NCBI RefSeq assembly: GCF_054482595.1
Contig: NZ_CM137008.1
DNA: 64,000 nucleotides
Strand: one strand, 5' to 3'
Part shown: positions 47,306 through 53,149 of the stretch, piece after piece
How positions within the stretch are numbered: position 1 is the stretch's first letter
How the letters are laid out: each line of letters starts with the position of its first letter
Notes under the pieces: model-generated
What the model was told of the DNA's origin: nothing
Databases searched by the model: none
The model's input: only the letters and a program-made list of their open reading frames with translations
Position numbers and translations under genes: made by a program

Positions 47306-47756
47306 CCATTTCTATATCCCCACCTTTTAACAACCTACTTCAGGCAAACGCGCTCGTGCAATATAAAAAGCTTCCGAGCATCATCTGAATAATTGGCTGG
47401 TGTTCTTTCTGATTTTAATTCGTTTGAGATCTTCTCCACAGAATAATTCTCGATACCATTTTTTCTCAAAGTCGAATGTGACCACTCGTCAATTTCCTTA
47501 AGCATATGCGTAATTTTTTCGTCCAGAGTTCGTTGGATTGCACGAAGTCACTGGCGAGTCCCGTTTTTATACTGTCTTCAACCACAGCATAAAAAGAGAT
47601 ATGGCTATGAAAAATTACCGCACCGTTATTCAGACATAAGCGCAGATTATGTAATTCAGAGAATTTATTCGAACTAAAGCCGATTTTCTGATTTGTCTGG
47701 CTGTACAGAAAACAGGATAAATTCCCTCCACGAGCGGAGGGAAACAGCTACAGGGA

Positions 47757-49163
47757 TTGCATATGAGTTGCTATTTGAAAGTCCTGATTTGTGCGATTGT
47801 CGCACTCGCTATATGGTTTTCCCCCGTCCCCGACGGGTTAACACCCTTAACCTGGCACATTCTGGCAATATTCATCACCACTGTGGTGGCGTTTATTCTG
47901 CAACCGTTGCCGGTAGGCGCTATCGCGTTAATAGCCATCAGTTTTATTATGCTTACCGGCATGATGAAAACCAGCGAAGCCTTAAAAGGTTTCAGCAGCA
48001 CCACGGTATGGCTTATTGTCGCCGCATTCCTGTACGCGAAAGGATTCATCAAAACGGGGTTAGGACGACGTATCGCCTATTTACTGATTCGCGGATTTGG
48101 CGGCAGCTCGTTGCGTCTGGGTTATACCTTAGCGCTAAGTGATATGATTATCGCGCCCGCAACGCCATCAAACACAGCGCGAGCAGGGGGGATTTTGTTC
48201 CCGATTGTTCGCAGTGTCTCTAACAGCTTTGGATCTGAACCGGATCAAGGGCCGCGTAAAATCGGCGCTTATCTGATGCAGACGGTGTTCCATTCCAACT
48301 GTCTCTCATCCTCGATGTTTATGACGGCCAGCGCGCCAAATGCGCTAATTGTATCTCTGGCGGCCAGCACCTTATTTGTTGATATCTCATGGGGGATGTG
48401 GACGCTAAGTGCACTGGTACCGGGCATTATCGCTTTTATCACTATGCCGTTGGTCATTTACAAACTTTACCCGCCAGAGATCAAAAAGACGCCAGAAGCC
48501 AAAGCGTTGGCACAGGAAGAACTTATCAAAATGGGGCCGGTAACCCGTGATGAGCGCGTGACGATTGGCATTTTCCTGCTTTCATTATTGGCCTGGAGTA
48601 CATCGAAATGGACTGGCCTGGATGCGACGGCTGTCGCGCTTTCCGGCGTCTGTTTAATGTTGATGACCCGGATTATCACCTGGCAGGATGTGCAGTCAGA
48701 GAAGGGGGCCTGGGACATTCTGGTCTGGCTGGGAGTCATGATCTGTATGGCAGATAAGCTCAATCAGCTTGGCCTGTTCAAATGGTTTGCCGTCACAACC
48801 TCGGCGCTGTTCACCGGCATTCCCTGGGAAATAACACTGACGGTTTTGCTGATAGTTTACTGCTATTCCCACTATTTCTTTGCCGGAAGTACGCCGCATG
48901 TAGTGGCGATGTATGCCGCTTTTGGCAGCGTCTCGGTTGCTGCAGGCGCACCGCCGATGATGGCAGCTCTGTCACTGGCGTTCGTCACTAACCTGATGAG
49001 CGGCATTTCGCATTATGGCAACGGACCCGCAGTGATCTATTACGGCGCAGGCTATGTCTCGCAACGAGAATGGTGGCGGCTGGGCTTTATCGTCATGTTG
49101 TTGAACATTGTCATCTGGTTCGGACTGGGGGCGGTGTGGTGGAAAATTCTTGGCCTGTGGTAA
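47757..49163 (+). CDS. DASS-family (divalent anion:Na+ symporter / CitT-TtdT-like) transporter
   Basis: 468-aa polytopic ORF with SNTA motifs (PATPSNTARAG); true start may be ATG 47763 (spacing to aggg); family call from motif recall only. Confidence 0.7.
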   Translation: MHMSCYLKVLICAIVALAIWFSPVPDGLTPLTWHILAIFITTVVAFILQPLPVGAIALIAISFIMLTGMMKTSEALKGFSSTTVWLIVAAFLYAKGFIKTGLGRRIAYLLIRGFGGSSLRLGYTLALSDMIIAPATPSNTARAGGILFPIVRSVSNSFGSEPDQGPRKIGAYLMQTVFHSNCLSSSMFMTASAPNALIVSLAASTLFVDISWGMWTLSALVPGIIAFITMPLVIYKLYPPEIKKTPEAKALAQEELIKMGPVTRDERVTIGIFLLSLLAWSTSKWTGLDATAVALSGVCLMLMTRIITWQDVQSEKGAWDILVWLGVMICMADKLNQLGLFKWFAVTTSALFTGIPWEITLTVLLIVYCYSHYFFAGSTPHVVAMYAAFGSVSVAAGAPPMMAALSLAFVTNLMSGISHYGNGPAVIYYGAGYVSQREWWRLGFIVMLLNIVIWFGLGAVWWKILGLW

Positions 49164-49198: not shown

Positions 49199-50158
49199 AT
49201 GAACTTAAAAGATATTCAGGTGGCGATCGTCGGCAAATTAAGCGACCGCTTAATGGCTAAAGTTGAATCTACCTTCACCGCATATCGCCTGTGGGAACTG
49301 ACCGACGCAGACGCTTTTTACACGCAGATCGCGCCGGATATTCAGGCGCTGGTGACCAGTGGTAATCCGGTAATGGGAGCTTCTCGGGCGCTCATTGAAA
49401 AATTTCCGAATCTGAAGATTATTGCCAGCAACGGTGTGGGCTATGACCCTATTGATATCGTGGCAGCAAGGGAGCATGGCGTTATCGTCACCAACACCCC
49501 TGGCGTGCTTAATGATTGTGTTGCAGACATTGGCATGGCGTTGTTACTCAATGTTGCCCGACGTATTAACATTGCCGATCGTTATGTTCGTGACGGCCGT
49601 TGGCCAAACGAAGGGCGTTTCCCGATGGCGACGAAAGTGAGTGGTAAGCGTTGCGGAATTGTTGGTCTGGGGAACATTGGTAACGCTGTAGCCCGCCGTG
49701 CAGCAGCATTTGAAATGGAAATTCACTATTTCGACCCAAAACCGCATAACAAACCTGGATGGACGGCGCATGATTCGCTGGTTTCTCTGGCGCAAGCGGT
49801 GGATTTCCTCGTTCTGACGCTGCCAGGCGGGGCAAGTACACGCGGCGTTATTGACAAAACTGTGCTGCAGGCTCTGGGGGGGACCGGGCATTTGATCAGT
49901 ATTTCCCGGGGTTCAGTGGTGAACGAAACTGATCTGATTGATGCTCTGCAAAATAACATAATTGCTGGTGCGGCACTGGACGTTTATGCCAACGAACCAC
50001 ATGTGCCAGAACAATTAATGTCGCTGGATAACGTTGTCCTTACGCCACATATCGCCAGTGGTACGAGCGAAACGTTTAATGCGATGGCGGATTTGGTTTT
50101 TGATAACTTACAGGCTTTCTTTAGCGGACAGCCAGTTATTACCCCTGTTACTCAATAA
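49199..50158 (+). CDS. D-isomer-specific 2-hydroxyacid dehydrogenase family protein
   Basis: 319-aa ORF with NAD-binding GIVGLGNIG and C-terminal catalytic TPHIAS region; RBS aagga upstream. Confidence 0.75.
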   Translation: MNLKDIQVAIVGKLSDRLMAKVESTFTAYRLWELTDADAFYTQIAPDIQALVTSGNPVMGASRALIEKFPNLKIIASNGVGYDPIDIVAAREHGVIVTNTPGVLNDCVADIGMALLLNVARRINIADRYVRDGRWPNEGRFPMATKVSGKRCGIVGLGNIGNAVARRAAAFEMEIHYFDPKPHNKPGWTAHDSLVSLAQAVDFLVLTLPGGASTRGVIDKTVLQALGGTGHLISISRGSVVNETDLIDALQNNIIAGAALDVYANEPHVPEQLMSLDNVVLTPHIASGTSETFNAMADLVFDNLQAFFSGQPVITPVTQ

Positions 50159-50168
50159 GGCGGAAAAT

Positions 50169-50648
50169 ATGATTTATGGTGATATCACTTATCTTAGTGA
50201 ACAACAAAAACGAACATTTCATCCTGTCATCGCTCGTGTCATTGAGTATCTTTCACAACATGATCTGAATAGTGTTCCTGTAGGGGAGAAGGTTTTTATT
50301 CAGGATGACTCAATTTTTTATACCGTGGTTGAACCGATGACTAAACCACTACATGAATGCCGACCAGAAGTTCATCGTAAATATCTTGATGTCCATTTCT
50401 TAATTGCCGGAGAAGAGCGGGTTTGTGTGGATTTTGATGATGGAGAAAACTCGGTTGTAGAAAGCCACCTGGGCGACCGTGACGTTATTTTTTATGCTGA
50501 TGAACGTATTAATGATCGGATAATCACGTTGACACCAGGACAGTTTGTGGTGGTCTTCCCGGAAGAGGTACATCGGGCATGTTATAAAGTCGATAACGTG
50601 GAGAAAATCAAAAAAACAGTCGTGAAAATCGACATGAGTCTATTATAG
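50169..50648 (+). CDS. YhcH/YjgK/YiaL (DUF386, NanQ-like) cupin-fold protein
   Basis: ORF 50034..50648; start placed at ATG 50169 just after the dehydrogenase stop; resembles YhcH by recall (LIAGEER, PGQFVVVFPEEVH, IKKTVVKI). Confidence 0.6.
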   Translation: MIYGDITYLSEQQKRTFHPVIARVIEYLSQHDLNSVPVGEKVFIQDDSIFYTVVEPMTKPLHECRPEVHRKYLDVHFLIAGEERVCVDFDDGENSVVESHLGDRDVIFYADERINDRIITLTPGQFVVVFPEEVHRACYKVDNVEKIKKTVVKIDMSLL

Positions 50649-50660
50649 GTGGAGCTGGTT

Positions 50661-51404
50661 ATGACAAAAATTGCCCTGGTGACAGGGGGAAGTAAAGGTA
50701 TCGGCTACGCGGCAGCAAGGGCGCTCTATGACATTGGATATACTGTTATTGTTGCCGCGCGTAACGAAGAAACCTTACAGCAATGTGCACAAGAATTAGC
50801 CAAGGAACGCTTTATTCCTCTGGTTGCTGATGTAACGGATGAGTCCGCTGTCGTTGCACTATTTGCCGAGATTAAGGCTCGTTTTGGTCGACTGGATCTC
50901 TTGTTCAATAATGCGGGCAATAATAGTCCGGCAAAAAGTATTGAAGAGGTTGAGTTTACTGAGTGGATACGCGTATTTAACGCCAATATTCACTCGACAT
51001 TTTTGTGTTCGAAAGAGGCGATTAAAATTATGAAAGCGCAGCAGCCAATGGGAGGACGTATTATTAACAATGCGTCGATTTCCGCACTGACGCCGCGCCT
51101 CTATACTGCGCCATACACGGCGTCGAAACATGCTGTTACCGGGTTGACCAAGGCCATTTCCCTGGATTGTCGCAAATTTAATATCGCTTGCGGGCAAATT
51201 AATATCGGCAATGCGGAAACGACATTATCGAATCGGATGCGTAAGGGCGTTTATCAGGCAGATGGCGCTATTAAAGCGGAAGATATGATGAATGTTGCTG
51301 ATGTTGCAGCAGCCATTCAGATGATGGCCCAATTGCCAGTAACCACGAATGTGCTGGAAATAACGATTATGGCAAATAATATGCCATATGTCGGACGTGG
51401 TTAA
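50661..51404 (+). CDS. short-chain dehydrogenase/reductase (SDR)
   Basis: ORF 50649..51404; ATG 50661 preceded by aggtggag; TGGSKGIG cofactor motif, NNAG, catalytic Y-x3-K (YTASK). Confidence 0.8.
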   Translation: MTKIALVTGGSKGIGYAAARALYDIGYTVIVAARNEETLQQCAQELAKERFIPLVADVTDESAVVALFAEIKARFGRLDLLFNNAGNNSPAKSIEEVEFTEWIRVFNANIHSTFLCSKEAIKIMKAQQPMGGRIINNASISALTPRLYTAPYTASKHAVTGLTKAISLDCRKFNIACGQINIGNAETTLSNRMRKGVYQADGAIKAEDMMNVADVAAAIQMMAQLPVTTNVLEITIMANNMPYVGRG

Positions 51405-51417
51405 TCGGGATTGAATA

Positions 51418-51442
51418 AAGCACCTTGCGTATAAGGTGCTTT
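51418..51442. terminator. bidirectional hairpin between SDR gene and fadK
   Basis: aaagcaccttgcgtataaggtgcttt inverted repeat flanked by A/T runs between convergent genes. Confidence 0.7.
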
Positions 51443-51454
51443 ATTATTTATGAC

Positions 51455-53149
51455 TTATGCCTCAACGCATGATTGTTCCAGCCGTTGAACAATATCTTTC
51501 CGTAACAAAAACTTTTGTATTTTACCTGAGGCAGTACGCGGTAGTTTTTCGATTACCACGATATGTTCAGGATATTTATATTTTGCGACCCGTTTACGGC
51601 TAAAAAAAGCCACCACCTCTTCCAGCGATAATGAATGATGCGGTGCTTTCAGCACGACATAAGCGCATGAACGTTCACCTAAGCGTTCATCGGGCATTGC
51701 AACCACACAAGCATCGTGAATTTTAGGATGCTGTAATAAAATATCTTCCACTTCACGGCTGCTAATATTTTCGCCGCCGCGGACAATAATATCTTTCTTG
51801 CGCCCGGTTATTTTTATATAGCCAGCCTCATCCATGCGGCAGAGATCGCCGCTGTAATACCAGCCTTCTTCATCCATGGCACGGGCGGTTAATTCAGGTT
51901 CATCAAAATACCCCATAAACACATTGGGGCCACGCGAGGCTTCTTCACCTTCGCAACCTGGCGGTAAGGTCTTGCGTGCGTCATCGACCACTTTAATCTC
52001 TACACCTGCGGCAGCGTAACCATCGGTGTGCATAAAGCGCGACAAAGGATCATCGAGATTCACCACCGCATGCGGCGAACTTTCTGTGGAACCATAAACA
52101 CTTAATAATTTAATGCCGCGCTGCTGGCATTCACGCGCCACTTTTTTGGGGATTGTGGTACCGCCGCAAAGAAAGAAGCGCAGCGCTGAAAGGTCTGCGG
52201 GTTGTTTCTCTAGTAAATTCAAAAGATCATAGACAAACGGCGTTGCGCCGAGCATACAGGTGCAACGCTGCTGCTCAAGCAGCGCGAGACACGCATCAGG
52301 AGTGAAAATATCTAACAACACGCTGCGAGCGCCAATTAAGAATGGTGCCGTTACGCCATGCAGAAAGCCCGTTGCGTGGCCGAGTGGCGCAGGCATCATA
52401 AAGACATCCTGCCAGGTCAGATTCAGCCGCGCGCAATAAGCCCGCTCACTGGCGAGAATATTGTTATGCGTTAGCATCACGCCCTTTGGCAGACCCTCGG
52501 TTCCGGAGGTAAACAGCACCGCAGCTAATTCATCGCCGTGGGTCGTTATCGCCGTGGTCAGTGGGGTATTGTCGGCGATAATCTGACTTAATGAGAGGGA
52601 AGAGGTGGCGGGAGCCAGTTTGTCCACGCCGACAATTTGTTGTAGTTGTGGAAGCTGATTTTGCAGCGGCAGGATTAAATCTACCGGACGCGTTTGTTTA
52701 AACAACGTCGGTGCAAAGAACATTTTTGCCTGACACTTATTGAGCACCCACACCAGTTCTGCTTCCCGCCAGGAAGGCAACAGCGGCACGGAAACCGCAC
52801 CGATTTTCAGGCAGGCAAGATAGATAACGGTAAATTCACACCAGCCTGGCAGTTGAAATGCGATGCGATCGCCTGATTCAATACCCTTCGCTAACATCCA
52901 GTTTGCCAGACAGCTCGCGGCGTGATCGAGCGCGCTATAGGTGTACGATGCTCCATGATTATCGACCACGGCAATTTTGTCTGGCATCGCACGAGCGGTC
53001 TGCTGCCAGTAATCGGCCAGCGAAGCATCGCCCCATAGCCCTTGCTGACGATACGCCGCACGACGTTGTTCGTTAAACGTTAATGTCACTTTCATTTTGG
53101 ACTCTCGAAACAGAACATCAGGCCCGAGATGCGGGCCTGTGGGATGCAT
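51455..53149 (-). CDS. fadK: short-chain acyl-CoA synthetase
   Basis: 564-aa ORF, AMP-binding family; true start may be the internal MKVTLTF. Confidence 0.9.
   Translation of the reverse strand: MHPTGPHLGPDVLFRESKMKVTLTFNEQRRAAYRQQGLWGDASLADYWQQTARAMPDKIAVVDNHGASYTYSALDHAASCLANWMLAKGIESGDRIAFQLPGWCEFTVIYLACLKIGAVSVPLLPSWREAELVWVLNKCQAKMFFAPTLFKQTRPVDLILPLQNQLPQLQQIVGVDKLAPATSSLSLSQIIADNTPLTTAITTHGDELAAVLFTSGTEGLPKGVMLTHNNILASERAYCARLNLTWQDVFMMPAPLGHATGFLHGVTAPFLIGARSVLLDIFTPDACLALLEQQRCTCMLGATPFVYDLLNLLEKQPADLSALRFFLCGGTTIPKKVARECQQRGIKLLSVYGSTESSPHAVVNLDDPLSRFMHTDGYAAAGVEIKVVDDARKTLPPGCEGEEASRGPNVFMGYFDEPELTARAMDEEGWYYSGDLCRMDEAGYIKITGRKKDIIVRGGENISSREVEDILLQHPKIHDACVVAMPDERLGERSCAYVVLKAPHHSLSLEEVVAFFSRKRVAKYKYPEHIVVIEKLPRTASGKIQKFLLRKDIVQRLEQSCVEA

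Follow-up and report, generated by a model that had tools for sequence, protein, structure and literature searches.

NanQ (YhcH) is a zinc-containing and zinc-dependent anomerase of N-acetylneuraminic acid (Neu5Ac) that speeds up the opening of the Neu5Ac ring and of the 2-keto-3-deoxynononic acid (KDN) ring and hands the open-chain α-keto acid to NanA; the N-acetyl group is dispensable, and in the proposal of the authors of that work the carboxylate and the C2 hydroxyl are ligands of the metal (PMC8141875). A second described system comes from Paracoccus litorisediminis, where the L-threonate 3-dehydrogenase Ltn3D (structure 9X6I; Watanabe et al. 2026, PMC12994016) oxidises the C3 hydroxyl of C4–C6 aldonates with 2R,3S stereochemistry (L-threonate and D-gluconate among them) and where the 2-hydroxyacid dehydrogenase (2HADH) encoded beside it was characterised as a 2-keto-D-gluconate/2-keto-L-gulonate reductase (2KGR; PMC12994016). 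Here we describe a gene of the NanQ family, DUF386 (YhcH/YjgK/YiaL), that is located between homologues of the two Paracoccus enzymes at positions 50169..50648 (plus strand) of a 64,000-nucleotide stretch of an Escherichia coli chromosome (contig NZ_CM137008.1), which we call the window. Our favored proposal, to which we give an about even chance of being right, is that the product is a cytoplasmic, metal-dependent (probably zinc-dependent) ring-opening enzyme, an “openase” or anomerase, that acts on the cyclic form of a 2-keto (ulosonic) sugar acid distinct from sialic acid. For any specific substrate our confidence is much lower.

A sequence-only reading of the window had assigned this open reading frame to the YhcH/YjgK/YiaL family. 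The frame is present, but its 160 codons include the stop codon, and the product has 159 rather than the reported 160 residues. The segments singled out in that reading are all found in the product: LIAGEER at residues 78–84, PGQFVVVFPEEVH at 123–135 and IKKTVVKI at 147–154. The family assignment is borne out by a Pfam profile search, which matched PF04074 (DUF386) with an E-value of 2.9e-36 (125.1 bits, cut-off 26.5) over residues 1–154 of the product and positions 1–144 of the 145-position profile; the TIGR00022 score is 130 bits (cut-off 45.5). RefSeq places a “YhcH/YjgK/YiaL family protein” (WP_021556863.1) at identical coordinates. An alternative TTG start at 50034 was rejected, as it lies within the upstream 2HADH gene in another frame, and the profile, the orthologs and RefSeq all favor 50169: the PF04074 alignment opens at residue 1, the N-terminal MIYG is common to all orthologs and a Shine–Dalgarno-like GGCGGA is present 5′ of the ATG. 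The gene is genuine and intact, and standard annotation already has it at the family level. Comparison with the ortholog from E. whittamii gave a ratio of nonsynonymous to synonymous substitution rates (dN/dS) of 0.065; the gene is under purifying selection.

An AlphaFold2 monomer model of the product, obtained with an alignment of 77 sequences (the alignment in which ligand conservation was also assessed), has a pLDDT of 96.9 and a pTM of 0.90. A Foldseek search with this model retrieved Salmonella YjgK (9JRR, the best match), Haemophilus influenzae YhcH (1S4C) and HP1029 (4TSD) with template modelling (TM) scores of 0.77–0.87 (0.85–0.87 for 9JRR and 1S4C) and E-values from 4e-13 to 1e-9. The comparison of a predicted structure with YhcH structures, which had been suggested as a check, thus returned the same jelly-roll β-sandwich fold as in YhcH, YjgK and HP1029; classical cupin isomerases and oxygenases were found at far lower ranks. 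Metal ligands known from crystallography, E63/H65/D70/H130 in YhcH (HI0227) and E62/H64/D69/H128 in YjgK (PMC12517248), align to Glu67, His69, Asp74 and His135 of the window product. These four predicted ligands are invariant or nearly so in the alignment, and all family-invariant residues are retained. The product is a small protein of the YhcH/YiaL family with a predicted zinc site.

The top rank of Salmonella YjgK, together with the biofilm phenotypes and zinc binding linked to YjgK and TabA (PMC12517248), would also suit a function of the TabA/YjgK kind (modulation of biofilms or metal homeostasis) unconnected with the neighboring enzymes. We regard such a role as very unlikely, since only 10 and 12 nt lie between the gene and its metabolic neighbors, in a four-gene cassette that is strictly conserved, and since TabA (71 bits) is more distant from the product than YiaL, its closest K-12 paralog (94.7 bits, 32% identity over the full length). 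A tabA gene of its own is moreover to be expected elsewhere in the strain. The existence of EbgC, a DUF386-related protein, and a weak match of the product to the EbgC equivalog NF007571 raise the possibility of a non-catalytic accessory subunit that binds a neighboring enzyme as EbgC does EbgA. This we consider highly improbable: the product reaches 23.3 bits with NF007571, where the cut-off is 146, it keeps the four metal ligands and the invariant residues, and the YhcH study argues against a mechanism of activation by protein–protein interaction (PMC8141875).

As for sialic acid, the suggestion that the substrate is a different one agrees with our results. The product belongs to the same family as NanQ, and the NanQ equivalog NF040884 is its second-best NCBIfam match, but the score is 100.4 bits where the cut-off is 160. 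Among the K-12 paralogs and, indeed, among all 82 sequences compared, NanQ is the most distant; it aligns with the window product over 94 residues only (48 bits, 32% identity). The K-12 nanQ gene sits elsewhere, in the nanATEK operon, and we confirm that there are no nan or yia genes around the window gene; nan genes are absent from every ortholog locus as well. Judged by these scores and alignments, the window product is not NanQ, and a second NanQ-like sialic acid anomerase is, in our opinion, extremely improbable. The accompanying statement that characterised family members act inside nan or yia clusters holds for nan, through NanQ, but not for yia: YiaL is uncharacterised, and its K-12 RefSeq name is still “DUF386 domain-containing protein”. 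On a neighbor-joining tree of DUF386 proteins, the window product and its orthologs group with Pantoea YiaL, but on long branches, and this grouping is not robust.

The DUF386 gene is the third of four cassette genes that form an island between ppsA and fadK; its pairing with a DASS transporter and two dehydrogenases was described correctly from the sequence. The cassette opens with a DASS-family anion transporter gene (47763..49163, plus strand; 466 residues; PF00939 E-value 9.5e-158, TIGR00785 449 bits). The closest solved structures are those of plant DiT1 (E-value 8e-130) and LaINDY, and the protein is 39%, 38% and 35% identical to YbhI, CitT and TtdT, respectively; it is 94.6% identical to its Citrobacter ortholog, with a dN/dS of 0.014. 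The second gene (49199..50158, plus strand) codes for a D-isomer-specific 2HADH of 319 residues (PF02826 and PF00389) whose best match in the Protein Data Bank (PDB) is 4LSW, a 2-keto-L-gulonate reductase from Ketogulonicigenium (K. vulgare; E-value 1.6e-78). It is 41% identical to the Paracoccus 2KGR (GL300_RS07940) and 45% identical to an enzyme from an Azospirillum cluster, has an Arg237/Glu266/His284 triad and Asp179 at an NAD-type cofactor position, and scores under every NCBIfam equivalog cut-off. By homology, it is of the type related to 2-keto-L-gulonate/2-keto-D-gluconate reductases.

The fourth gene (50661..51404, plus strand) codes for a short-chain dehydrogenase/reductase (SDR) of 247 residues from the Ltn3D (L-threonate/aldonate 3-dehydrogenase) subfamily, 50% identical to P. 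litorisediminis Ltn3D (PlLtn3D; 9X6I, E-value 1e-71). PlLtn3D residues Ser136, Ser138, Arg143, Tyr149, Lys153, Asn181, Glu204 and Met238 correspond to S139, S141, R146, Y152, K156, N184, E207 and M241 of the window SDR, so that the Ser-Tyr-Lys catalytic triad (S139/Y152/K156) and the substrate residues R146, N184, E207 and M241 are all present; substitutions were found at Met186 (Leu189) and at Arg33-Arg34 (Arg34-Asn35). Mutations of Ser136, Arg143, Tyr149, Asn181, Glu204 and Met238 abolish or greatly cut the activity or substrate affinity of PlLtn3D (PMC12994016), and all six of these residues are kept in the window SDR. Since the two dehydrogenases are homologous to a pair formed by a 2-keto-gulonate/gluconate reductase and an aldonate 3-dehydrogenase, the substrate class is narrowed to keto sugar acids.

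In our proposal, the DASS exchanger would import a sugar acid, and the metal bound by Glu67, His69, Asp74 and His135 would act as a Lewis acid on the C1 carboxylate and C2 hemiketal to give the open-chain keto form. The open form, with its free carbonyl, would be needed by the adjacent 2-keto-aldonate-reductase-like 2HADH for hydride transfer, and the Ltn3D-like SDR would then act on C3 of the aldonate or reduce a 3-keto group. Candidate substrates include 2-keto-L-gulonate, 2-keto-D-gluconate, 2,3-diketo-L-gulonate or a dicarboxylic analogue; two reductions of 2,3-diketo-L-gulonate with a 2R,3S outcome would yield L-idonate. An extension of this proposal, which we put forward tentatively and at clearly lower confidence, is that the cassette constitutes an enterobacterial pathway that has yet to be described: it would handle a keto sugar acid that stems from vitamin C or ketogluconate, or else a dicarboxylic analogue, and its DUF386 openase would be coupled to dehydrogenases instead of an aldolase. 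In one version of such a route, the 2HADH and the Ltn3D-like SDR would together turn a 2,3-diketo acid into an aldonate by reduction, L-idonate being the product if the acid is 2,3-diketo-L-gulonate; in another, the two enzymes would bring about a net transposition of a 2-keto to a 3-keto group. The DASS protein could in this route be a precursor/product antiporter.

The location of the DUF386 gene between dehydrogenases that act at C2 and C3 can also be read in another way, namely that the product is a true isomerase, epimerase or tautomerase whose cupin-type metal centre carries out net conversion of a sugar acid through an enediolate; conversion of a 2-keto to a 3-keto acid, epimerisation at C3 and keto–enol tautomerisation of a diketo or hydroxy-keto (di)carboxylate are examples. 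A dicarboxylate-type transporter could suit small hydroxy-keto dicarboxylates that do not cyclise, and a sugar isomerase/epimerase role of YhcH was proposed in the original structural paper, to the extent that it is quoted in PMC8141875. The sole characterised member of the family, however, catalyses no net conversion (PMC8141875). Metal-dependent cupin phosphoglucose and phosphomannose isomerases do appear among the distant Foldseek matches, but these matches are weak, with TM-scores of 0.38–0.49 and root-mean-square deviations mostly above 5 Å and up to ~16 Å. We therefore consider an isomerase-type activity rather unlikely.

Several observations weigh against the ring-opening proposal. Judged by its relatives, the cassette transporter is a DASS protein of the di-/tricarboxylate exchanger branch, for which a dicarboxylic substrate, or antiport of precursor and product, is a better fit than a simple aldonate would be; since the keto-aldonate candidates are monocarboxylates, the true substrate may be something else. 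No DUF386 gene was found within ±10 kb of the Paracoccus Ltn3D/2KGR locus, so that this pair works without a nearby DUF386 gene and an openase is not obligatory. The clade formed by the window product and its orthologs has Ala137 in place of a nearly invariant family proline after the last His ligand (HRA, not HRP). There is no regulator gene within the cassette or the island. Truncated or frameshifted DUF386 alleles have been deposited for some Escherichia genomes, with breakpoints exactly at the homopolymers of the gene (T6 at 50314-50319, T6 at 50488-50493 and A7 at 50610-50616); these broken alleles reflect either slippage-prone decay (pseudogenisation) or assembly errors. Finally, strain XH990, which has an island 100% identical to that of the window, lacks at its rpoS-mutS locus the ygbI-N operon (the ltnD/otnK/otnC/otnI threonate operon) that K-12 carries there; the corresponding XH990 segment (NZ_CP019359.1 1113065-1116583) codes for a MarR regulator and for subunits B, C and D of a hydroxyarylic acid decarboxylase. 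With otnK and otnC missing there, XH990 lacks the path by which a 3-keto acid would most obviously be processed further. The ygbI-N operon (otnK/otnC) is present in 4600 of the 5426 E. coli genomes; for XH990, a downstream link of the cassette to OtnK/OtnC is unsupported.

The island is carried by 114 of the 5426 complete E. coli genomes (~2%); XH990 and O157:H16 Santai are two such strains. The window corresponds to the chromosomal region selO-hemP-aroH-ppsR-ppsA ... fadK-ydiT-ydiS-ydiR-ydiQ-ydiP; in island-free E. coli of the K-12 type the match to the window ends at ~47305, at the ppsA terminator, and ppsA abuts fadK. In E. whittamii and in Escherichia sp. MOD1-EC7003, too, the island occupies the locus that it has in the window. 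The E. whittamii region is collinear with the window over 16.5 kb, with identity of 94–96% in the island versus 91–94% in the flanks; divergence of the island relative to the flanks is thus similar or slightly lower in E. whittamii, and it is similar or slightly higher in MOD1-EC7003. That E. coli imported the island recently is unsupported, given the common locus in these two relatives and the flank-like divergence. The similar divergence of island and flanks in E. whittamii suggests instead that the island was present ancestrally and was then lost from most E. coli. In E. coli 88COLEC (NZ_CP070906.1), an IS4-like element, ISVsa5, is inserted within the island region.

Loss from most E. coli is in line with an explanation in which the DUF386 gene is decaying or dispensable and the cassette is a relic on its way out of the species: the island is rare, its divergence in E. 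whittamii fits ancestral presence followed by loss, alleles broken at the T6, T6 and A7 runs occur in some Escherichia, one strain has an insertion sequence in the island and a regulator gene is lacking. We consider this quite unlikely for the gene described here. The window reading frame is intact, the dN/dS is 0.065, the ligands and family-invariant residues are all kept, the cassette is intact in Citrobacter and in a third lineage, and the homopolymer frameshifts may be assembly errors.

This set of four genes, in unchanged order, is found in three unrelated chromosomal contexts, those of E. coli/E. whittamii, of Citrobacter and of the third lineage. The Citrobacter DUF386 ortholog, located between unrelated genes, is 72% identical to the window product, and the ortholog from the third context is 56% identical. 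No plasmid copy of the cassette was found in PLSDB, where all plasmid matches are below 60% identity. An exhaustive HMMER scan of 1.84 billion cluster representatives returned 3966 relatives of the DUF386 product at E ≤ 1e-3, of which only 2 are at E ≤ 1e-30; both are cassette orthologs, and the next best match is 39% identical. Only 3 of 100,044 species-representative genomes contain the clade. It is a new and very narrow subfamily of DUF386 in a new operon context. A literature search with the RefSeq accessions of the four cassette proteins found no paper.

As had been noticed by eye, the DUF386 gene is richer in AT than its neighbors. Its GC content is 0.400 (0.338 at third codon positions), compared to 0.515 for the DASS gene, 0.501 for the 2HADH gene, 0.458 for the SDR gene and 0.493 for the whole window. 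The orthologous genes of E. whittamii (0.396) and Citrobacter (0.435) are also low in GC. Since orthologs in the same conserved cassette share it, the low GC content is a property of the gene and no sign of a separate arrival; on this ground we reject a separate horizontal acquisition of the DUF386 gene.

Successive cassette genes lie 35, 10 and 12 nt apart, a Shine–Dalgarno-like motif precedes each of them, and one terminator-like hairpin follows the last. This hairpin (51414..51445), located where the SDR and fadK genes converge, is the right-hand boundary of the cassette; the stretch 51405-51460 has a predicted folding energy of -17.7 kcal/mol (z -4.5), and a tail rich in U comes after the stem. 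At its C terminus (51455-51520, minus strand), FadK differs from the K-12 protein, the annotated genes being 1641 nt and 1647 nt long with unalignable last codons; it therefore seems that the island's right junction falls within or beside the 3′ end of fadK and not cleanly in the spacer.

At the left, 457 bp (47306..47762; 41% GC) separate the ppsA terminator from the DASS gene and presumably constitute the promoter/operator region. Blocks conserved with Citrobacter in this region include ATGCACGAAGTCAC, TTTTTATACTG and GCTGTACAGAAAACAGGAT, and a search of the 457-bp leader for riboswitches and other known RNAs gave no Rfam match at E ≤ 0.1. A hairpin in the 5′ leader, TTCCCTCC-N6-GGAGGGAA (47722..47743, plus strand), is located just upstream of the DASS ribosome-binding site, ~20 nt before the DASS start; the segment that holds it (47700-47765) folds with -18.3 kcal/mol (z -3.05). 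Citrobacter retains the stem by two compensatory changes, T-A replacing a C-G pair and G-C replacing a T-A pair, which suggests a conserved RNA structure or a palindromic operator. Two adjacent short open reading frames for 56 (MLKEIDEW...) and 39 (MVEDSIKTG...) residues are present in different frames on the minus strand at 47335-47585. They look like remnants of a frameshifted gene; a Pfam search with the two products gave no match.

NanQ sialic acid anomerase is the only biochemical function known in DUF386, despite the 3966 matching cluster representatives. The clade described here, YiaL, the Azospirillum cluster and relatives encoded in 2-keto-3-deoxygluconate (KDG) clusters suggest that the family supplies open-chain α-keto sugar acids to many downstream enzymes. 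If the extended proposal is true, the window product would be the first reductase-coupled ring-opening enzyme of DUF386 and a likely model for the uncharacterised YiaL. Being small and self-contained, present in a tractable host and provided with homologs of two enzymes characterised in 2026, the cassette is a convenient system for testing this generalisation. It could also reveal the substrate of an accessory metabolic island found in ~2% of E. coli genomes; no current idea would be overturned by its role.

The α-keto and diketo sugar acids of Azospirillum-, YiaL- and Kdu/Kdg-type pathways are largely cyclic hemiketals or hydrates, and several DUF386 contexts can be compared with the window cassette in this light. 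The nearest relatives of the product outside its clade are encoded with KduI/KduD/KdgT or with KdgK (the kinase for KDG) and the aldolase for KDG 6-phosphate (KDPG), which hints at a DUF386 role in the metabolism of KDG or 5-keto-4-deoxyuronate that would be analogous to that of KdgF. KdgF is a small classical cupin, not a DUF386 protein, which linearises unsaturated uronates, and so hastens a ring opening that also happens spontaneously, ahead of isomerase or reductase enzymes; its accessory role is analogous, and in KduI/KduD clusters some near relatives of the window product replace it. The cluster on plasmid pAB510b of Azospirillum sp. B510, as far as annotation goes, resembles the window in having a DUF386 protein (39% identical) and a 2HADH (45% identical), and also contains IdnO-like, IdnD-like, HIBADH and gluconokinase genes; unlike the window, it has an MFS transporter and a LysR regulator and no Ltn3D-type SDR.

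In E. coli, and likewise on plasmids of Pantoea and Salmonella, YiaL-type genes adjoin yiaK, the gene for 2,3-diketo-L-gulonate reductase. The yiaK-S (2,3-diketo-L-gulonate) operon resembles the cassette in that a DUF386 gene lies beside a keto-sugar-acid reductase gene and a dedicated transporter, which on the YiaL side serves an ascorbate-derived acid. The reductase YiaK, however, is of the Ldh_2 family, the transporter is of TRAP or MFS type, and the operon includes a kinase, a decarboxylase and epimerases, whereas the window cassette has a 2HADH reductase and a DASS transporter and neither kinase nor decarboxylase. With the Paracoccus 2KGR (GL300_RS07940) and Ltn3D (GL300_RS07945) pair, the cassette shares both dehydrogenases that flank DUF386 (41% and 50% identity). 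The Paracoccus locus differs in gene order (SDR, then 2HADH) and in having no DASS gene within 10 kb, and the Paracoccus reductase is strictly NADPH-dependent, with Ser-Arg at the cofactor site where the E. coli 2HADH has Asp-Pro.

The differences from NanQ/YhcH (PDB 1JOP/1S4C) concern sequence (the window product is ~32% identical to HI0227), the residues after the last ligand (HRA versus HRP/HKP) and genetic context, since nanA, nanT, nanE and nanK are not found near the window gene and the partner would be a dehydrogenase rather than an aldolase. What the two proteins have in common is the Pfam family, the fold (TM-score 0.87), the Glu/His/Asp/His metal site, a length of about 150–160 residues (154–155 in NanQ/YhcH, 159 in the window product), a cytoplasmic location and a gene inside a sugar-acid catabolic operon; the chemistry proposed for both would be metal-assisted opening of an α-keto-acid hemiketal.

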